From: Mustelus asterias
Taxonomy: Eukaryota
NCBI RefSeq assembly: GCF_964213995.1
Contig: NW_027590659.1
Coordinates: 124,001 to 187,827 of the forward strand
Direction of reading: 5' to 3'
DNA: 63,827 nt
Position numbers and translations under genes: made by a program. A model generated the notes under the pieces. That model was not told the origin of the DNA. It did not search any database and saw nothing but the letters and a program-made list of their open reading frames with translations. Below, piece by piece: positions 4,755 through 41,300 of this stretch (position 1 is the first letter of the stretch; every line of letters starts with the position of its first letter).

Positions 4755-5016
4755 CCCTTGAAGAATGAGAGGCGATCCCATTGAAACAGACTTAAAATTC
4801 GTACAGGGTGTGACAGGGTGGATGTAGATTGGATGTTTCCCCTGGCTGGTGAGACTAGAACCAGGGGACACAATCTCAGAATCAGGGGCAGACCATTGAA
4901 GACTGAGGTGAGGAGGAATTTCTTCACTCAGAGGGTGGTGAATCTTTGGAATTTTCTATTCCAGGGGGATGTGGAAGCCCAATCATTCAGCATGTTCAAG
5001 ACGCAAATCGATTGTG
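4755..5016 (+). mobile_element. CR1/HER1-type LINE 3' fragment
   Basis: Translates ...ETRTRGHNLRIRGRPLKTEVRRNFFTQRVVNLWN..., the CR1 ORF2 C-terminal signature. Confidence 0.9.
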
Positions 5017-27996: not shown

Positions 27997-29832
27997 GGGC
28001 AGAGATTACTGATACAAGACCCAGATTGTAATAACAGAGGGAGGTTTAGGGCAGAGATTACTGACACCAGGCCCAGAGTGTAATAACTGAGAGAGGTTTA
28101 GGGCAGAGTTTGCTGAATCAAGGCCCAGATTGTAATAACTGAGAGAGGTATCGGGCAGAGATTACTGATACCAGGCCCAGATTGTAATAACTGAGAGTGG
28201 TTTAGGGCAGAGATTACTGATACAAAGCCCAGATTGTAATAACTGAGAGAGGTTTCGGGCAGAGATTACTGATACCAGGCCCAGATTGTAATAACAGAGA
28301 GGTTTAGGGCAAAGTTTGCTGAATCAAGGCCCAGATTGTAATAACTGAGAGAGTTGTAGGGCAGAGATTACTGACACAGTGCCCATATTGTAATAACTGA
28401 GAGAGGTTTATGGCAGAGATTACTGATACAAGTCCCAGATTGTAATAACTGAGAGAGGTTTAAGGCAGAGATTACTGATACAACGCCCAGATTGTAATAA
28501 CTGAGAGAGGTTTCGGTCAGAGATTACTGATACCAGGCCCAGATTGTAATAACTGAGAGAGGTTTCGGGCAGAGTTTACTGATATAAGTCCCAGGTTGTA
28601 ATGACTGAGAGATGTTTAGGGCAGAGTTTACTGATACAAGGCCCAGATTGTAATAACTGAGAGAGGTTTAGGGCAGAGTTTACTGAATCAAGGCCCAGAT
28701 TGTAATAACTGAGAGAGTTGTAGGGCAGAGATTACTGATACAAGGCCCATATTGTAATAACCGAGAGAGGTTTCGGGCAGAGATTACTGATACAAGGCCC
28801 AGATTGTAATAACCGAGAGAGGTTTCGGGCAGAGTTTACTGATACAAAGCCCAGATCGTAATAACTGAGCAAGGTTTCGGGCAGAGTTTACCGATTGAAA
28901 ACCCAGATTGTAATAACTGAGAGAGGTTTATGGCAGAGATTACTGATACAAGGCCCAGATTGTAATAACTGAGAGAGGTTTGGGGCAGAGTTTACTGATA
29001 CAAGGCCCAGATTGTAATGACTGAGAGAGGTTTCGGGCAGAGATTACTGATACAAGGCCCAGATTGTAATAACTGAGAGAGGTTTAGGGCAGAGATTACT
29101 GATACAAGTCCCAGATTGTAATAACTGAGAGAGGTTTCGGGCAGAGTTTACTGATACAAAGCCCAGATTGTAATAACTGAGAGAGGTTTCGGGCTAAGTT
29201 TACTGATACAAAACCCAGATTGTAATAACTGAGAGAGGTTTAGGGCAGAGATTACTGATACAAAGCCCAGATTGTAATAACTGAGAGAGGTTTCAGGCAG
29301 AGTTTACTGATACAAGGCCCAGATTGTAATAACTGAGAGAGGTTTCGGGCAGAGTTTACTGATACAAGGCCCAGATTGTAATAACTGAGAGAGGTTTCGG
29401 GCAGAGATGACTGATACAAGGCCCAGATTGTAATAACTGAGAGAGGTTTCGGGCAGAGTTTACTGATACCAGGCCCAGATTGTAATAACTGAGAGAGGTT
29501 TCAGGCAGAGATTACTGATACAAGGCCCAGATTGTAATAACTGAGTGAGGTTTCGGACAGAGTTTACTGATACAAGGCCCAGATTGTAATAACTGAGAGA
29601 GGTTTCGGGCAGAGTTTACTGATACAAGGCCCAGATTGTAATAACTGAGAGAGGTTTCGGGCAGAGTTTACTGATACAAGGCCCAGATTGTAATAACTGA
29701 GAGAGGTTTCGGGCAGAGTTTACGGATACAAGGCCCAGATTGTAATAACTGAGAGAGGTTTAGGGCAGAGATTACTGATACAAGGCCCAGATTGTAATAA
29801 CTGAGAGAGGTTTCGGGCAGAGTTTACGGATA
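27997..29832 (+). repeat. 52-bp minisatellite, ~35 copies (copy 2)
   Basis: Same unit as 3030-4657, about four units longer. Confidence 0.97.
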
Positions 29833-32800
29833 CATGATCCCGGCAGGATTTACTGTTTGATAATCCAGCTGTTTGGCCCCGTTATGAGCACACCTTCCAT
29901 GGCCATCAAGTCCGGAAGTCGGCCTTGAACCCTTGAAGAATGAGAGGCGATCCCATTGAAACAGACTTAAAATTCTTCCAGTGTGTGACAGGGTGGATGT
30001 AGATTGGATGTTTCCCCTGGCTGGTGAGACTAGAACCAGGGGACACAATCTCAGAATCAGGGGCAGACCATTGAAGACTGAGATGAGGAGGAATTTCTTC
30101 ACTCAGAGGGTGGTGAATCTTTGGAATTTTCTATTCCAGGGGGATGTGGAAGCCCAATCATTCAGCATGTTCAAGACGCAAATCGATTGTGTNNNNNNNN
30201 NNNNNNNNNNNNNNNNNNNNNNNNNNNNNNNNNNNNNNNNNNNNNNNNNNNNNNNNNNNNNNNNNNNNNNNNNNNNNNNNNNNNNNNNNNNNNNNNNNNN
30301 NNNNNNNNNNNNNNNNNNNNNNNNNNNNNNNNNNNNNNNNNNNTGTGTTTATTACTGTGTGCGTCTGAGTGTTACTGGGTGAGAATATCTGTTTCTCTGT
30401 GTTTTCATAGAATCCTAGACTCCTGCAGTGCAGAAGGAGGCCATTTGGCCCATTGAGTCTGCACCGACCACAATCCCACCCAGGCCCTATCCCCATTACC
30501 CCATGCATTTACCCGAGCTCGTCTCCCTGACGCGGAGGGACAATTTAGCACGGCCAATGCACCCGAACCAGAACGTCTTTCAGACTGTGGGAGGAAACCG
30601 GAGCACCCGGAGGAAACCCACGCAGACACGGGGAGAACGTGCAAACTCCGCACAGACAGCGACCCAAGCCGGGAATCGAACCCGGGTCCTTGGCACTGTG
30701 AGGCAGCAGTGCTAACTGTGTGTTTGATGCGTGTGTGTGTGTTTGTGTGTGTGTGTGCGTTTATTGTTTGTGTGTGTGATTTGTGTGTGTGCTTTTTGTG
30801 CGTGTTTTATGTGTGCTTGTGTGTGTGTGTTTTGTGTGTGTGCGTGCTTTGTGTGTGTGCGTGTTTTGTGTGTGTTGGTGTGTGCGTGTTTTGTGTGTGT
30901 TGGTGTGTGCGTGTTTTGAGTGTATTGGTGTGTGCGTGTTTTGTGTGCGTACGTGCACCATGATCTGTTTGAATGCTGGCGCAGGATCGATGGGCCAAAT
31001 GGCCTACACCTGCTCCTATTTTCCTTTGAGATTTAAATACATTGACACACATGCACGCTGACACACACACACAGAAAGATATACACAGTGTGGACGTATT
31101 TATTGACCACTTAATGTGACTGAATGCTACACATCCCAGTTTACCAAAGACACACAATATTCAGCAGCATTGTAAACAGCGCAGCTGGAAACATCAAATT
31201 GGGGATTTGGTTTGAAAAAGGGTCAAAGCCTCTCTTGCTAAAGGCTGTTTGTCTATATTGTGCTGACTGTGATACACTGCCATCCTCTGCTGCCTGCTGG
31301 ACATTGCTCCAGCCGCAGAGAGAGTGAAGTAGATCAGAAACTCACTGGGAGAGAATGCAGCTTCACACAGTATCCATCCAAAACGACAGGAGCATCAGCA
31401 ACACACACAAGCTCCGTGTGGAGACTGAGAGGGGCTCAGTGTGGAACACAAACCTTCACACTAAACCTGGAAGGACATTGATGAAGAGTTTAAAACAAAA
31501 CTTCAGCAAATGTTTTGAAACATTTTGGTCCGTGGAAAAGTGCAGTGTGTAAAAAGCTGAAGATGTTTCCATTTCACATCTTCCTGCTTTGGGGAAATGG
31601 GAGTTATCTTTGCATTTACAAGGATATGGGGAGGGAGGTGTTTGAATGGACATTCAGCTTTTTGGGTGATTAAAGTGTTAATTTGTTTCCAGAAGCTGTT
31701 TACAGTGATTGTCCCGAGAGATTGTATTGTTTCAGTGATGTCGACGTCTCCAATACTTCAGACAGAGGAAGGAAGCAATATACAAAAGGAAAGATAGGGG
31801 GAATCACTACATTGAAGGTGTGAGGCCTCATCACTCTCTGTCTGGTTTTGTTCTGAAATCTTTACATTTTTAAACACTGAAACCTCTTGCCCTTGTTGGG
31901 AATATCACGGCGGTTTGAGTAAAAGCAAACACTGATCCCACACTAAACACCCCCCCCCCCAACACAGGACTGAGCAGAGAGTGTGAAATGTGACTGGTGT
32001 CAGAGTGGATTGTCAAACTGACAGAAGGGATTTGAAAAATCTCTAAATGATTCATTGATTAAAAACTCTAACATTAATGTCCCGCATCATAAACATCTGC
32101 TTCATTATTGTATCTTTCTTTTACATATCAAGTGATGGGTTGAATTTTGGACGGTGTAGATTTCCCTCAGCTGATTATTAAGATTCCTGATTGACACAAA
32201 TACAATATCTGCTGTCGGTGACTCCAACAGTGAAATTCTCTCAGTTTATCATTCTGAATCTGTCACTGAGACAATTGTGGGCGGTAGTTCAGTTTTCAGT
32301 GTGAAATGTAGAAGGTAACTTTTGTTGTAATGTAATTGTAGTTAATAGTTTTCCTGTAGTTTAAATCTCAGGTATAAATTAATAACTTTTCTCGTTCCTT
32401 GTTCACAATTGTTCATTTCCCGTGATGTTGAGCTCTGGTTTTCTCTTTCTGGTGTCTGGTACAGCTGTACAGATATTGGGCAGTTCAGAGCGGGGGGGTT
32501 CTGATCTCATTGTGAAGCTCAAAGGTCAGATTCACTTTTGTTAACTTTAAAATCAATTTTCCTGTCAAATATTCTCTGAATTTGTAAATAAATATTGAAT
32601 GGAAAATAAAATCTGACTTTGCCAAACTCTCTTTCTGTATTTCTCTGTTGGTGTGTTTATGTGTGTGTCTCTCTGTCTCTATCTCTCTGTGTATCTGTGC
32701 GTCTCTCTGTGTATCTGTGCGTCTCTCTGTGTCTCTATCTCTCTGTGTATCTGTGTGTCTCTCTGTTTCTATCTCACTGTGTATCTGTGTGTCTCTCTGT

Positions 32801-33856
32801 CTCTATCTCTCTGTGTATCTGTGTGTCTCTCTGTGTCTCTATCTCTCTGTGTGTCTGTGTGTCTCTCTGTTTCGATCTCTCTGTGTATCTGTGTGTCTCT
32901 CTGTGTCTCTATCTCTCTGTGTCTCTATCTGTCTGTGTGTCTCTCTGTCTCTATCTCTCTGTGTATCTGTGTGTCTCTCTGTGTCTCTATCTCTCTGTGT
33001 GTCTGTGTGTCTCTCTGTTTCGATCTCTCTGTGTATCTGTGTGTCTCTCTGTGTCTCTATCTCTCTGTGTCTCTATCTGTCTGTGTGTCTCTCTGTCTCT
33101 ATCTCTCTGTGTATCTGTGTGTCTCTCTGTGTCTCTATCTCTCTGTGTCTCTATCTCTCTGTGTATCTGTCTCTGTATTTCTCTGTATCTGTGTCTCTCT
33201 CTGTATATTTGTATATTTCACTCTGTCTCTGTGTTTGTGTCTCTCTCTTTGTTTCTCTCTGTCTCTATTTCTCTGTATCTGTGTGTCTCTCTGTCTCTGT
33301 ACTTCTCTGGATCTGTGTCTCTCTCTCTGCCTCTGTGTGTATATCTCTCTATGTATCTGTGTGTGTCTCTCTGTCTCTGCATTTCTCTGTATCTGTCTCT
33401 GTCTCTGTGTTTCTCTGTCTCTGTGTGTCTCGATGCTAAGGGCCTAGTATTTCAGGCTCTGACCTGAACCCACAATCTCTCTGACTCTGAGCGAAGATTA
33501 CTACATTGAAGGTGTGAGGCCTCATCACTTTCTGTCTGGTTTAGTTTTGTAATCTTTACATGTTTAAACACTGAAACCTCGTGCCCTTGTTGAGAATATC
33601 ACTGCGGTTTGAGAAAAGCAGACACTGATCCCGCACTAAACACCCCCCCCAACACAGGACTGAGCAGAGTGTGTGAAATGTGACTGGTGCGAATGTGGAT
33701 TGTCTTTTAAAAGTGGGTAAGAAACACTTCATTTTCAAATCTTTACCCTGCTTCTGTAGCGTCTCAGATTCCACCTAATCTGCACATCTTTGGACTGTGG
33801 AAGGAAACCGGGGCACCCGGAGGGAACCCACGCAGACACAGGGAGAATGTGCATAC

Positions 33857-34101
33857 TGTGGTGGACCTCAGTTGTGCCTTTGTCCTATATGGACCACCGT
33901 TGTGTGTGTTTGTCATACCTGGACACATCCCCTTCCAGTTTGGTTCCTCCCCTCAGCACCTAGTATAAAGGTGGCTGTCTCCTCCCCCTTGTTCAGTCCA
34001 GGTCGGTTAATTGTTGGGATCTGCTCCTGATTCTGTTGTGAATAAAAGCCTACACTTATATTGGCATATCGGTAGTCTTTCGCCTTATTGATAGTGCATC
34101 A
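33857..34101 (+). repeat. 5' LTR (TATA box tataaa at 33,965; AATAAA at 34,041)
   Basis: Matches 38,142-38,386; TG/CA termini. Confidence 0.97.
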
Positions 34102-34125
34102 ATTTTATTCACAACAGTTACTAGT

Positions 34126-37100
34126 ATGGAGCAGTTTCTAAAACCCGACAAGTTAGCTTTAGACCCTCAAGAGGTTGGAGCCTCTGATAAATTTGATCAT
34201 TGGTTGGACTGCTTCGAAGCATTCGTCGACACCGCTACGGCCATCGACACCGACGCTGCTAAACTCCACGTGCTCCGCGCCCGGGTAAGCGAAACTGTCT
34301 ATGGAATCTTCCGGGACGCTGCTACTTACGCGGACGCTATCGAACTCCTAAAAGGGCAGTTCCGAAAGAGCCCTAACGTGGTTTACGCCAGACACCTCCT
34401 AACTACCCGCAAACAGCAGCCAGGAGAATCGTGCGCCCAATTTCTGCGCGCCCTGCGAGTCCTCGCCCGAGCATGCGACTGTAAGGCTGTTTCAGCAGCT
34501 CAGAACACGGAGGATCTGATCCGCGACGCCTACGTTGCGGGCATTGAGTCTACATACATCCAGCAGCGTCTGCTGGAACAAGATGACCTAGACCTCCGGA
34601 AAACGGCCACTATGGCTGAAACGTTAGAAGCAGCCTCCCATAATCTCGGGTCTTACCTTGGATCCCGTTCCACCGACGGCTCCACTGCGACGGCTGCTCC
34701 AGCAGGGCCCAAATGTTACTTTTGTGGCCTCCCTAAGCACCCTCGGCGTCACTGCCCGGCAAAGGACGCGATTTGCTCCGGATGCGGTAAGCTAGGCCAC
34801 TTTGTCAAAGTCTGCAGAGCAAAGCCGCTTCTGAAGACTCGTGGAGCCATGTGTGCTCCGAGGGCGCGGCCATCTTTGATGCAGGCGGCGGCTGCGCGCG
34901 AATCGCCATCTTGGATGCGGTCACCGGAAGTGCGGGAATCGCCATCTTTGATGCGGTCACCGGAAGTGCGGGAGTCGCCATCTTTGAGACTGGCATCAAG
35001 GCAAGCTGAGCAGGAAGCTTCATCCGTGACGTCATCAGACGGCGACGAAGATGGATTCTTCTTTAATTCAACAGTGGCATCGATTTGCCTGGACCAGTCG
35101 CAGCCACATCAACTCTCCAAGTCCATAATGGAGATCAAGGTAAATGGTTATGCAGAAAACTGCCTGTTTGACTGTGGGAGCACGGAAAGTTTTATACACC
35201 CTCGCACAGTGCGTCAATATGCCCTTCCCGTGCGACCCTGGAGCCAGACCATCTCCATGGCCTCGAATTCTCACTCAGTGGAGGTCCTCGGGTGCTGCTT
35301 GGTGACGCTGACGGTACAGGGCACAGTCTACGAGCGTTTTCGGCTCCTCGTGCTGCCGCGACTCTGCGCAGCTGTACTGCTGGGGTTAGATTTCCTCAGC
35401 CATCATAGAAGCGTCATCCTGCAGTACGATGGCCCTTATCCCCCGCTCTCCGTCTGCAAGGCGCCGTCACGGCAGCGCCCCTCGCGCACCACCTGCAGTC
35501 TCTCGACCCTCAAGATCACCCCCCCCCCGTTATTTGATAACCTCACCCCGGATTGTAGGCCTATAGCCACCAAGAGTAGGCGCTATAGTGCGGATGACCG
35601 GGCCTTCATTCGGTCCGAGGTACAACGTTTGCTCCAGGAAGGGATTATCCAGGCCAGCACCAGCCCCTGGAGGGCGCAAGTGGTCGTAGTTAAATCGGGG
35701 GAGAAACACCGCATGGTGATTGACTACAGCCAGACCATAAACAGGTATACCCAACTAGATGCATATCCTCTTCCCCGTATCGCGGACATAGTCAACCACA
35801 TCGCGCACTATAGGGTTTTTTCAACGATCGATTTGAAATCGGCTTACCACCAGCTCCCTATCCGCTCGGAGGATCGCCCATACACTGCCTTTGAGGCGGA
35901 TGGCCGCCTCTACCAGTTCCTCCGAGTCCCCTTTGGTGTCACCAATGGGGTCTCAGTCTTCCAACGGGCCATGGATCAAATGGTGGACCAGCACGGACTA
36001 CGGGCCACTTTCCCGTATCTGGATAACGTCACCATCTGCGGCCATGACCTGCAGGACCATGATGCCAACCTACAAAAATTCCTTCGTACGGCCACTCTCC
36101 TGAACCTCACATACAATGAGGCGAAGTGTGTTTTCCGGACACGCCGCCTCGCCATCCTTGGGTACGTGATAGAAAATGGTGTCCTTGGCCCCGACCCAGC
36201 CCGTATGCGTCCCCTTATGCAGCTTCCCCTCCCTACTACCCTCAAAGCACTGAGGAGATGCCTGGGCTTCTTCTCCTATTATGCCCAGTGGGTTCCCCGT
36301 TACGCAGATAAAGCCCGTCCGCTCCTAAAATCGACCTCTTTTCCCCTGGCGGAGGAGGCCTGTCGGGCCTTCGATGACATCAAAGCGGACATCGCGAAGG
36401 CCGCGATGCACGCTGTGGACGAATCCATCCCATTCCAAGTGGAAAGTGATGCGTCTGACTTTGCCCTAGCTGCCACCCTTAACCAGAGGGGCCGTCCGGT
36501 GGCCTTCTTTTCCCGGACCTTACAAGGCCCTGAGATTCGACACTCCTCGGTCGAGAAGGAGGCCCAGGCCATCGTGGAAGCCGTCCGGCACTGGCGCCAT
36601 TATCTCGTGGGCCAACGATTCACCTTAATTACGGACCAGCGGTCAGTTGCCTTCCTGTTTAACACCAGGCAAAAGGGCAAGATTAAGAATGACAAGATCT
36701 TGCGGTGGAGGATTGAGCTCTCCACCTACAGATATGACATCATGTACCGGCCTGGGAAGCTCAATGAGCCCCCAGACGCCCTGTCCCGTGGATCATGTGC
36801 CAGTGCCCAACTAGACCAGCTACAGTCCCTCCATAACGACCTCTGTCACCCGGGTGTCACCAGATTTTTCCATTTTGTCAAGTCCCGTAACCTGCCCTTC
36901 TCCCTTGAGGAAGTCCGGACGATTACCAGGCAATGCAGGGTCTGCGCTGAGTGCAAACCGCAGTTCTACCGGCCAGGTAGGGCGCACCTTGTAAAGGCCA
37001 CTCGCGCGTTCGAGCGCCTTAGCGTTGATTTTAAAGGCCCCCTCCCCTCCTCTAACCGCAATGTTTATTTCCTGAATATCATTGACGAATACTCACGTTT

Positions 37101-38091
37101 CCCTTTTGCCTTCCCCTGCTCGGACATGACCACGGCTACAGTGATTCGGACCCTGAACAAGCTCTTCACCCTGTTCGGCTTCCCAGCCTATATTCATAGC
37201 GACCGTGGGTCCTCTTTCATGAGTGATGAGCTGAGGCAGTACCTGCTCGCCAAAGGCGTTGCCTCCAGCCGTACCACTAGCTATAACCCCAGGGGCAATG
37301 GTCAAGTAGAGCGGGAGAACGCAACCGTCTGGAAGGCCGTTCTATTAGCGTTACGGTCTAGGGGCCTTCCAGTCAGCCGTTGGCAAGACGTCCTTCCGGA
37401 CGCATTACATTCCATTAGGTCACTCTTGTGCACAGCGACCAATACGACCCCTCACGAGCGGATGTTTTCATTTCCCAGGAAGTCCTCCTCGGGTACTTCG
37501 CTCCCGGATTGGCTGATGTCCCCGGGACCCGTCCTGCTTCGGAAGCATGTCCGGACCCATAAGGCAGATCCCTTGGTCGAGAAGGTCCAACTGCTCCATG
37601 CTAATCCCCAATATGCTTATGTAGCGTACCCTGATGGGCGGGAGGACACGGTTTCTGTCCGTGACTTGGCACCCGCGGGTGCCCCGGAGGTCACCACGTC
37701 CTTCCGCCCCACGGTCCCTGGTGTCGTCCATTCGGAGACTGCTACGCCTCTTCCTCCCTCAGTCCCTGTCCCCAATGTAGTGTGCCCAGAGCCTGTTGCA
37801 GCCCCCCACCCCCCAGCTCCGGTTCCCACCGTTCCCCACACGCCACCAGGGCCACAGCCCATTCCTCTCGCCCCTATGTACAGCTCGCTTGAGTCGCCGG
37901 AGCCGTCGCCACGCAGTACCCGACGACTGGACGGGACGACGGATCGGTCCGCTTCACACCACCCAGCGCCTTCTCTCGACGCTCACTGTACGGAGCCTGG
38001 GCCGACATCGCTCCCTGCTCGGACGACTCTGCGACCTGCACTACGACGATCGCGACGACGGATCAAGCCACCGGTTCGTCTGGACTTGTGA
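34126..38091 (+). CDS. Gypsy gag-pol polyprotein, 1321 aa, single ORF
   Basis: Two CCHC knuckles (CYFCGLPKHPRRHC, CSGCGKLGHFVKVC); protease LFDCGS; RT (IDLKSAYHQ, PFG, YLDN); RNase H (ESDAS, EKEA, TDQ); integrase HHCC + D,D,E (DFKG, DRG, VER); Pro-rich tail. Confidence 0.97.
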   Translation: MEQFLKPDKLALDPQEVGASDKFDHWLDCFEAFVDTATAIDTDAAKLHVLRARVSETVYGIFRDAATYADAIELLKGQFRKSPNVVYARHLLTTRKQQPGESCAQFLRALRVLARACDCKAVSAAQNTEDLIRDAYVAGIESTYIQQRLLEQDDLDLRKTATMAETLEAASHNLGSYLGSRSTDGSTATAAPAGPKCYFCGLPKHPRRHCPAKDAICSGCGKLGHFVKVCRAKPLLKTRGAMCAPRARPSLMQAAAARESPSWMRSPEVRESPSLMRSPEVRESPSLRLASRQAEQEASSVTSSDGDEDGFFFNSTVASICLDQSQPHQLSKSIMEIKVNGYAENCLFDCGSTESFIHPRTVRQYALPVRPWSQTISMASNSHSVEVLGCCLVTLTVQGTVYERFRLLVLPRLCAAVLLGLDFLSHHRSVILQYDGPYPPLSVCKAPSRQRPSRTTCSLSTLKITPPPLFDNLTPDCRPIATKSRRYSADDRAFIRSEVQRLLQEGIIQASTSPWRAQVVVVKSGEKHRMVIDYSQTINRYTQLDAYPLPRIADIVNHIAHYRVFSTIDLKSAYHQLPIRSEDRPYTAFEADGRLYQFLRVPFGVTNGVSVFQRAMDQMVDQHGLRATFPYLDNVTICGHDLQDHDANLQKFLRTATLLNLTYNEAKCVFRTRRLAILGYVIENGVLGPDPARMRPLMQLPLPTTLKALRRCLGFFSYYAQWVPRYADKARPLLKSTSFPLAEEACRAFDDIKADIAKAAMHAVDESIPFQVESDASDFALAATLNQRGRPVAFFSRTLQGPEIRHSSVEKEAQAIVEAVRHWRHYLVGQRFTLITDQRSVAFLFNTRQKGKIKNDKILRWRIELSTYRYDIMYRPGKLNEPPDALSRGSCASAQLDQLQSLHNDLCHPGVTRFFHFVKSRNLPFSLEEVRTITRQCRVCAECKPQFYRPGRAHLVKATRAFERLSVDFKGPLPSSNRNVYFLNIIDEYSRFPFAFPCSDMTTATVIRTLNKLFTLFGFPAYIHSDRGSSFMSDELRQYLLAKGVASSRTTSYNPRGNGQVERENATVWKAVLLALRSRGLPVSRWQDVLPDALHSIRSLLCTATNTTPHERMFSFPRKSSSGTSLPDWLMSPGPVLLRKHVRTHKADPLVEKVQLLHANPQYAYVAYPDGREDTVSVRDLAPAGAPEVTTSFRPTVPGVVHSETATPLPPSVPVPNVVCPEPVAAPHPPAPVPTVPHTPPGPQPIPLAPMYSSLESPEPSPRSTRRLDGTTDRSASHHPAPSLDAHCTEPGPTSLPARTTLRPALRRSRRRIKPPVRLDL

Positions 38092-38141
38092 TATTGTTTC
38101 CGCTTCACCCCCGTGTTGTTTTTTTAAAAGGAAGGGGTGAA

Positions 38142-38386
38142 TGTGGTGGACCTCAGTTGTGCCTTTGTCCTATATGGACCACCGTTGTGTGTGTTTGTCA
38201 TACCTGGACACATCCCCTTCCAGTTTGGTTCCTCCCCTCAGCACCTAGTATAAAGGTGGCTGTCTCCTCCCCCTTGTTCAGTCCAGGTCGGTTAATTGTT
38301 GGGATCTGCTCCTGATTCTGTTGTGAATAAAAGCCTACACTTATATTGGCATATCGGTAGTCTTTCGCCTTATTGATAGTGCATCA
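38142..38386 (+). repeat. 3' LTR
   Basis: Matches the 5' LTR; preceded by the PPT and followed by the TSD. Confidence 0.97.
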
Positions 38387-41300
38387 CATACTCAACTCCC
38401 AACCGAGAATTGAACCCGGGTTCCTGGTGCTGTGAGGCAGCAGTGCTAAACACTGTCCACCATGTAGCCCTATCCCATGTATTGGGACACGGTGAAAAGT
38501 ATTGTTTCTTGCACGCTACACAGACAAAACATACCATTCATAGAGTCCATTTGGGAGAAGGAGAAGAGAGGGTGCAGAATACAGTGTTGCAGTTACCGAT
38601 AGGGTATAGAGAAAGATCAGCTTAATGTCTGGTAGGTCCACTCAAAAATTAACATTCTGACCAAACACTAAAGCTTTCCACAAAACAAGGCTCACAAATT
38701 CAACACCACTTTCCTTTGTCCGCTCTCCCATCATGCTGTGCGCGGAGTCTCTGATCGATGCTAAGGGCCTAGTATTTGAGGCTCTGAGCTGAACCCACAA
38801 TCTGTCTGATTCTGAGGGAAGATTACTGCCACTCAGATACAGCTGGCTGCAATATCCCCTTGAAATATATCTGTTGTGTACAGAGTCACATGTTTTTTTT
38901 TCCCTGTGTCTGCTGTCCTCAAAGAACTATTGAATAATCTAAACATCCGCATTAATTATCACAGAACAAGGCCAACATGATGGAATCGAGTATCAGGTTT
39001 AAAAGTTTATTTATTAGTGTCACAAGTAGGGTTACATTAACACTGCAATGAAGTTACTGTGGAAAATCCGTAGTCGCCATGCTCTGGCGCCTGTTTGGGC
39101 ACCTTGGGGAGAATTTAGCATGGCTGAGACACCTAACCAGCACGTCGTTCGAAATGTGGGAGGAAACCGCAGCACCCGGTGGAAACCCACGCAGACACGG
39201 GGAGAATGTACAAACTCCACACTGACAGTGACCCAAGCCAGGAATCAAACCCGGGTCCCTGGCGCTGTGAGGCAGCAGCGCTAACCACTGTGCTGCCCCT
39301 CATCGAAACATTGTGCAGTTGTGGATTGCACAGGATAGGAGGGATGTGATAGCACTGGAAAAGGTGCAGAGGAGATTCACCAGGATGTTGCCTGGCCTGG
39401 AGAGTTTTAGTTCATAGAATCATAGAATCCCTACAGTCCAGAATGAGGCCATTCAACCCATCAAATCTGCACGGACTCTTACCCAAGCTTACCCCGTAAC
39501 CCCACGTATTTTCCCGCTAATCCCCCTAACCTATACATCGTGGGACCCTCAGGGCAATTTTGCATGGACAATGCACCCGGAGGAAACCCACGCAGACACG
39601 GGGAGAATGTGCAAACTCCACACAGACAGTAACCCGAGGCCGGAATTGAACCCGGGTCCCTGGCGCTGTGAGGCAGCAGTGCTAACCACTGTGCTACCGT
39701 GCCGCCACTCGAACTGAAGAGAGATTTTATAGACTGAGGGTGTGATCTTACCACCTGTTGACGCCACACTCCCGCTCTGCGAGGTCGGAGAATCTGGTGA
39801 CCAGCCAAATCTCCTTTCACTGCAGTGGGATGGGAAAATCCTGCCGGTCTGAACGGTGATAAGATTCCACCCTGGGGTTGTTTTCCGTGGAGCAGAGGAG
39901 GCTGAGGGGGAACATGATGGAGATGGATAAGATTATGAGGGACATCAATAGAGTAGACGGGAAGAAAGCTTTCCCCTTGGTGGTGGGATCAATGACCAGG
40001 GGGTATAGATTTAGGGTAAGGGGCAGGAGGTTTACAGGGGATGTGAGGAAAACCTTTTTCACCCAGAGGGTGGTGGGAGTCTGGAACTCTCTGCCTGAAA
40101 GGGTGGTGGAGGCAGAGACCCTCAGAACGTTTATGAAGTGCTTAGCTATGCATTTGCAATGCCAAGGCTTACCAGGCCGTGAGCCAAGTTGGGTGATTTG
40201 TCTTTGACCAGCACAGATGCAATGGGCCGAAGGGCCTTTTCTGTTCTCCAGACCTCCATTGCTAAAACACAACCTCACTGACCCAGCTTCTGGTCATCCA
40301 TCCAAATCTCTCCCTCCGCAGCTCGGGGACAAATCCTGCCACGCAATCTTCCTTTGAAGTGGCTTTGGACATTTCATTCTCCGTGAGGACTTGTCCGGAT
40401 AGTGGCTGCTGTTGTTGTGTTTGTCTCAGTGTCAGCTCAGAAGCATGGACAACATGTTAGAAATGGCCGTCTCCCAGTGAGTGTGAGGACAGGGCAGGCT
40501 TTGAGCGAGGCCTGGGCCGCTCCCTGAAGGACACAGGGCCACCATTGTGCTTTTTGCTGACAAACAGAAAGCTTTCACCTCTCTCTCTCTCTCTCTCTCG
40601 TGTCTCATCTCACTCACATTCTGCCCCTTCCATTCACTCTGTGCTGCTTTCTGGAGGAGGCTGCCAGCTTTATCCGCCACAGAGCATCTGCCAACAAGAA
40701 CATCAGATGAAACCTTCCATTCCCCAAGTCCCTCTTTCCTCTCTGCTCCTCGCTGTCTTTCCGGAGGAAATGGGATGGGAAGCTGATGGGAAAAGATTTG
40801 CAGGGCTCCAGGGACAAGGTGGAGCAGTGGGACTGGCTCGATTGCTCTAGCAGAGAGTCGACACCAGCTGAATGGGCTGAATGGCCTCCTTCATTCTGTG
40901 GCTATTCTATGGTTGACACACAATAGATAGTCAATATCTTTTCCCAAAGGTAGGGGAGTCTAAAACTCGAGGGCATGGGTTTAAGGTGAGAGGGGAGAGA
41001 TACAAAAGTGTCCAGAGGGGCAATCTTTTCACACAGAGAGTGATGAGCGTCTGGAACAAGCTGCCAGAGATAGTAGTAGAGACGGACACAATTTTATCTT
41101 TTAAAAAGCATTTAGACAGTTACATAGGTAAGATAGATGTAGAGGGATATGGGCCAAATGTGGGGAATTGGGACCAGCTTAGGGGTTAAAAGAAAAAGGG
41201 CAGCATGACAAGTTGGGCCAAAGGGCCTGTTTCCATGCTGTAAACATCTACGACACTATGACAACTTGTCATTTGGGTCTCAACTTCAAGTTTCTAGGTG

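Follow-up and report, generated by a model that had tools for sequence, protein, structure and literature searches.

A Ty3/Gypsy clade with a primer site complementary to its own LTR is a candidate for self-primed reverse transcription

How does an LTR retrotransposon start reverse transcription when its primer site does not resemble the end of a tRNA? The window, the whole stretch of 63,827 nucleotides of Mustelus asterias contig NW_027590659.1 analysed here, raises this question through an intact, young Ty3/Gypsy element at 33857-38386, which has LTRs, a target duplication, a polypurine tract and the domain order Gag-PR-RT-RH-IN (Table 1). An RNase H domain was found in its protein. The TGG start of a tRNA-led primer site, present in control Gypsy elements, is absent from this one. 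The initial annotation had proposed that a complement of the element's own LTR replaces the tRNA site, and positions 34103-34117 are indeed the exact reverse complement of positions 34033-34047 (the arm), beginning one base (A34102) past the LTR-terminal CA. When the LTR was dinucleotide-shuffled 5000 times, no run beginning 0-5 nt past the LTR exceeded 12 nt, compared with 15 nt in the real sequence. The best match of the primer site to host tRNAs was 7 nt among only 28 distinct genes, mostly Thr, and comparison of the LTR region with Rfam returned no family above threshold. The computed fold of the leader RNA has a z of -3.5. Other features proposed at the outset were recovered as well: the arm begins 63 nt past the end of TATAAA (33964-33969; a distance of ~63 nt had been given) and contains AATAAA at 34041-34046, while the protein has two CCHC knuckles (residues 197-210 and 217-230) and no chromodomain match.

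The youth of the family is evident from scored matches that are identical over 474 nt in 40 of 40 cases, and the junction between LTR and primer site occurs in 568 exact copies. The element sits in an abundant SINE-like repeat (window 33770-33856 and 38387-38460), and target duplications favour G or C at the first base (23/30 left flanks) and the last base (26/30). Elsewhere, window 27880-29900 contains a tandem array of about 35-40 copies of a 52-bp unit.

Judged from sequence, the element very probably primes its own reverse transcription. We put the probability at roughly 70% that it does so in the manner of Tf1, with a capped primer of ~53 nt cut from the 5' R of its own RNA. The RNA would start at A33995 and be capped, and nt +39 to +53 would pair with the primer site, aided by a helix (P0) to the gag start and by a hairpin after the arm. 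By analogy to Tf1, the element's RNase H would cut after A34047. The reverse transcriptase would then extend A34047 over A34102 and U5 back to G34048, and the resulting 55-nt strong-stop DNA would jump to the 3' R through the ~19 nt that separate the cut from a poly(A) site just past AATAAA (near 34066). The position of the arm on the poly(A) signal would follow from the need for the cut to fall a short way upstream of the poly(A) site. Plus-strand synthesis would copy the attached primer and regenerate the primer site, so that mutations in the arm would reach the primer site without a second mutation. Self-priming from a 3' end at A34047, with the arm internal to the transcript, had been suggested initially and is supported by the covariation of the duplex, the spacing of TATA box and initiator, and by-product insertions in the genome.

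Table 1. Features of the element and its predicted priming signals, in window coordinates
Feature	Position	Strand	Remark
Left target-site duplication CATAC	33852..33856	.	5 bp
5' LTR	33857..34101	+	245 bp, TG...CA, identical to 3' LTR
TATA box TATAAA	33964..33969	+	from sequence; present in 138/150 sister-family copies
Initiator-like TCAGTC, predicted transcription start A33995	33993..33998	+	TATA spacing; two by-products end copying here
Helix P0, 5' strand	34021..34027	+	predicted to pair with gag start region
Primer arm in R, holds AATAAA 34041-34046	34033..34047	+	predicted primer 3' end A34047
Predicted cut site, AAA/RCCT context	34047..34048	+	context kept in 28 representatives; suggested by Tf1 analogy
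Hairpin P2 and predicted R overlap for strand transfer	34048..34066	+	P2 only 3 bp here
Putative poly(A) site at CA	34065-34066	+	inferred
Single A between LTR and primer site, predicted first base copied into minus-strand DNA	34102..34102	+	retained at junction in 19/19 by-products
Primer-binding site	34103..34117	+	complement of arm; no TGG, begins TTT
Gag-PR-RT-RH-IN single frame	34126..38091	+	1321 aa
Helix P0, 3' strand	34128..34134	+	gag codons 1-3; predicted
Two CCHC zinc knuckles	34714..34815	+	residues 197-210, 217-230
RT active-site motif YLDN (not YxDD)	36016..36027	+	from sequence
Polypurine tract	38126..38141	+	from sequence
3' LTR	38142..38386	+	identical to 5' LTR
Right target-site duplication CATAC	38387..38391	.	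5 bp

Covariation of arm and primer site

One check proposed with the initial annotation was compensatory covariation between primer site and LTR in relatives, and this was borne out both in loci from other organisms and in copies from the element's own genome. From 86 loci on metagenome and genome contigs, 37 gag starts with sufficient flank were obtained, all on contigs of other organisms. At 21 of these, 10-18 consecutive pairs without a mismatch begin one base after a CA, and a further five pair at 12 of 13 positions; the independent families behind these counts number about 13-16, since several loci are copies of one family. The other 11 gag starts fall short of both 10 consecutive pairs and 12 of 13, which suggests decayed copies or misplaced or doubtful starts. 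When the site of one locus was paired with the LTR of another, 12 pairs were reached in only 25 of 1406 combinations, and all 25 are copies or close kin with a common arm. Among other Gypsy stretches of the element's own genome, used as controls, the LTR end was readable in 16 of 20, and each of the 16 has TGG and no LTR complement longer than 8 bp.

The base pairs themselves are strict. In 28 representatives, picked for an intact duplex, pairs 1-13 are Watson-Crick in 363 of 364 cells and never G-U, despite variation at positions 4-13. Unlike the duplex, the hairpin beside it uses G-U pairs freely. We infer that copying of the primer into the site would leave just such a duplex, free of wobble pairs. 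The arm of these representatives always ends in AAA, followed by RCCT or a near variant, and the inner edge of the duplex is fixed between AAA and RCCT on the arm side and between CA-A and TTT on the primer-site side. Among 150 unselected sister-family copies from the element's own genome, pairs 1-13 are kept in 140-149, pair 15 in 116 and pair 16 in 4. All eight arm and primer-site types with at least three copies in this genome match over 13-15 nt. The pairing is therefore clade-wide and covarying. At locus L042 (near 4950-5000), which belongs to a distant family, the primer site of one copy matches the family LTR over 19 nt instead of 13, a possible trace of read-through.

Predicted transcript and by-product insertions

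The position of the arm within the transcript was predicted from promoter spacing. A TATA box is present in 138 of the 150 sister-family copies, and in 131 of these 138 an initiator-like A lies 31-34 nt past the TATA start and 33-40 nt before the arm. With the predicted start at A33995, the arm would span nt +39 to +53, 38 nt inside the transcript. A start at A34030, weighed as an alternative, lacks support across families. Helix P0, between upstream R and the gag start, has at least six pairs in 100 of the 150 copies compared with 6.6 in shuffles, the copies not being independent of one another. Hairpin P2, directly 3' of the arm, occurs in 14 of 16 distant representatives compared with 4.2 in shuffles. 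Outside the element's own genome, only 2 of the 16 distant representatives have a TATA box and helix P0 is not evident; because neither feature is conserved there, the long primer may be peculiar to this lineage. Poly(A)-tailed processed copies of the element were looked for and not found.

Self-priming predicts a joint of upstream R, the arm and the complement of A34102 and U5, and this joint was used as a query. An exact search gave 18 matches, four of which were discarded as point variants from a sister family. Allowing two mismatches, we found 19 loci of the element's family and three in sister families. The 19 loci have in common upstream R, the arm, a T and an inverted U5 end, and compare with the 568 normal junctions. 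Seven are 437-bp palindromes with two U3 ends, in which the LTR and an A are followed by an inverted LTR that starts at the arm and reaches the U3 edge. In another seven, short U3-to-U5 forms, the arm is followed by 5-27 nt of inverted U5 end. Of the remaining five, two are longer mixed forms and three are joined to internal sequence. A 5-bp target duplication flanks 17 of the 19 (15 perfect, two with one mismatch), which implies that these by-products were inserted as free cDNA.

The ends of these insertions bear on both ends of the primer, for which they are circumstantial evidence. Four events end short of U3. In two of them the end of the inverted copy maps to nt 49-55 (L363) and nt 49-54 (L389) of the primer, ranges that span the predicted +1 at nt 53; the other two end at nt 164 and 135. 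For two of four ends to fall by chance within 7 nt out of 176, the rough probability is about 1%, a figure that ignores microhomology bias: microhomology is present at each start-site event (two of the four short of U3), and an internal match exists for 38 of 170 LTR 7-mers. In L389, the T at nt 53 does not serve as a breakpoint marker, because 11 internal copies also have it. At L257 and L395 the primer site has been overwritten over ~25 nt up to the P0 homology at the gag start, with deletion of the spacer. Of the seven short forms, four pick up again at G34048, where the cut is predicted, and three of these have 4-5 nt of microhomology at that place. The predicted RNase H cleavage of the duplex, proposed by analogy to Tf1, finds indirect support in the by-products.

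The palindromes fit a fold-back of plus-strand strong-stop DNA that ends in the primer site. Any primer has the sequence of the arm, however, and fold-back palindromes by themselves are no proof of a cis source. The by-products could also stem from DNA-level template switches at the inverted repeat, against which argue their integrase-type ends and the fact that no full element with an altered 5' LTR is among the 19. The palindromic inserts L354, L357, L359, L362, L367, L369, L370 and L394, which consist of LTR sequence only, have a U3 end on either side and are flanked by target duplications, look like MITEs and could be mis-annotated as such; in six compared, the arms differ by 0-3 bases.

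Length and source of the primer

The preferred reading was weighed against three alternatives. In the first, self-priming is Tf1-like with a short primer, either because the RNA starts at or beside the arm or because a further cut leaves a primer of 13-18 nt. The sharp outer edge of the duplex, with pair 16 in only 4 of 150 copies, speaks for such a primer, as do the distant families that lack an upstream TATA box and the rarity of read-through by-products, which make up only ~3% of junctions. The long primer has a difficulty of its own, since with 53 nt some mechanism would have to hold plus-strand copying to 15 nt or trim it back to that length. The spacing of TATA box and initiator, however, places +1, in 131 of 150 copies, 33-40 nt upstream of the arm, and at L257, L395, L363 and L389 the arm was copied in one piece with upstream sequence. 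We consider the short primer unlikely.

The second alternative takes the arm of the 3' R as the primer, on the same or a co-packaged RNA, so that the 3' end of the genome would prime at the primer site. The arm is present in both R copies and the palindromic by-products run through U3, as this alternative would have it. The palindromes, however, end exactly at the LTR edge with target duplications, which is what fold-back of plus-strand strong-stop DNA predicts, while the two read-throughs that end at the predicted +1 and the four of seven short forms that resume at G34048 fit a cut 5' template. This source of the primer is quite improbable. The initial annotation had allowed either R copy to supply the primer; self-complementarity stands, and the by-products favour the 5' R.

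A purely regulatory duplex, occluding the 5' poly(A) signal or acting as a U5-AUG-type switch while an unknown host RNA primes, is consistent with the full pairing of AAUAAA in the folded 5' leader and with a tRNA match test that covered only 28 distinct genes, mostly Thr (best 7 nt), but is very hard to reconcile with a duplex that has no G-U pairs, an inner edge fixed one base from the LTR end and no canonical signal in 7 of 16 distant arms, and with a primer site that differs between families and always tracks its own LTR, for which reason a conserved host RNA is unfit as primer.

Masking of the poly(A) signal could still accompany the 5' R primer of the preferred reading. The duplex had been suggested to hide the 5' signal and leave the 3' signal free. 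The first part agrees with the predicted leader fold, in which AAUAAA is fully paired; the second fares less well, as the 3' copy is also predicted to be partly paired. AATAAA or ATTAAA lies in the arm of all 12 representatives from the element's own genome and of 9 of the 16 distant ones (the other seven have no canonical signal). Because the 3' fold also partly pairs the signal and only 9 of 16 distant arms contain it, masking would be a possible extra, a side benefit in some families and not the core function of the duplex.

Relation to known self-primed elements

The nearest named homologues are in rays and sharks (70-81%), with relatives in nematodes, cnidarians, insects and crustaceans; no relative was found in viral contigs. 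Clade members are also present in prokaryote MAGs of GTDB (L031, L032 and L036), probably as host contamination. Neither a chromodomain nor a Tf2-type SH3 (SH3_Tf2-1) was detected in any of 13 proteins scanned (the element and 12 of 12 homologues). Among 121 clade proteins, 105 have two knuckles and 86 have YxDN, with Asn at the last place of the RT motif, yet the family is young and abundant. A literature search for the YLDN motif found no paper.

In the RT-RH tree (60 rows, unrooted, with Tf1, sushi and the Cigr-1, Tor2, MolGy, PolGy and LGF references absent), a branch with an SH-aLRT of 100 sets the 19 clade members apart from the other rows. Chromodomain carriers were taken from another search, because a search of the element's own genome for Tf2-type SH3 gave only weak, broken matches. 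The clade is sister to 10 K02A2.6-like (Mag-like) rows with weak support (89/48) and a long branch between the groups. The best tree separates the clade from the chromodomain carriers without decisive support, and a joint clade is not rejected by the AU test (p 0.345). Paired knuckles are a Mag trait, as they are of the clade. The Mag lineage (K02A2.6-like Gypsy), in the portions of PMC6238403 and PMC8556966 available to us, also resembles the clade in its single frame and is its nearest tree group. Mag-like copies in the element's own genome, in contrast, have a TGG primer site. A further young Gypsy family in this genome (L147-L161 and L166) has a frame of ~1990 aa, a TGG-led primer site and minisatellite-bearing LTRs.

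The mechanism proposed for the clade is a known one, that of Tf1, and what varies is the primer geometry and the setting in a clade without chromovirus marks. Tf1 and Tf2 of S. pombe and Tj1 of S. japonicus are described as self-primed Ty3/Gypsy elements in the sections seen of PMC7175516, PMC4600332, PMC5341516 and PMC11042837. Like the clade, they have no tRNA site, a primer site complementary to their own R, a predicted RNase H cut and a primer copied into the cDNA end. According to the accessible text of PMC7175516, the first 11 bases of Tf1 RNA pair with the primer site and are cut off, and PMC11042837, likewise available in part, describes copying of the primer into the plus strand of Tf1 cDNA. 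Where the Tf1 primer is the first 11 nt of the RNA, the arm of our element is predicted to lie 38 nt inside the transcript; clade arms are 13-18 nt long and usually carry the poly(A) signal. The clade differs further from Tf1, Tf2 and Tj1 in its two CCHC knuckles, its mostly YxDN motif and its lack of a chromodomain or Tf2-type SH3.

Self-priming has been predicted from complementarity of LTR and primer site more widely, in the Tf1/sushi group, including vertebrate sushi elements and the plant and fungal Tcn1 chromoviruses (PMC6317226, in the part seen). That group resembles the clade in its predicted self-priming and in having vertebrates among its hosts; the clade differs in lacking chromovirus marks and is set apart from the chromodomain carriers by the RT-RH tree, with support that is not decisive. 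The same part of PMC6317226 predicts self-priming outside the chromoviruses in the TAR lineage of plant Ty1/copia (Houba, Osr-1), and for this reason repeated origins of self-priming have already been proposed. The TAR lineage belongs to another superfamily and to other hosts than the clade.

Repbase reportedly labels some animal Gypsy families as self-primed. No account of the clade's priming appears in the portions available to us of PMC6317226, PMC4600332, PMC5341516, PMC3601003, PMC5006619, PMC6934838, PMC10886601, PMC6238403, PMC2774666 and PMC8556966; Repbase Reports and subscription journals lie outside this scope, and the supplements of PMC6238403 may name the clade. Within the same partial coverage, experimental proof of self-priming is confined to fission-yeast Tf1, and self-priming is regarded, among Gypsy elements, as a trait of chromoviruses.

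A second, widespread animal clade with another primer geometry bears on the order in which tRNA-priming and self-priming arose and on how often elements switch. Our joint reading, offered tentatively, is that a non-chromovirus, animal-wide Gypsy clade independently evolved self-priming by means of a long capped primer, the 3' arm of which coincides with the poly(A)-signal region, that one helix both primes and silences the 5' signal, that both ends of the primer are preserved, fossil-like, in the by-products, and that the reverse transcriptase works with Asn in place of the second Asp of its catalytic motif. The by-products yield exact predictions, a primer of 33995-34047 and a strong-stop DNA of 34102-34048, and suggest that priming intermediates can be read from genomes. 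Annotation tools that require a tRNA site will mis-annotate the clade.
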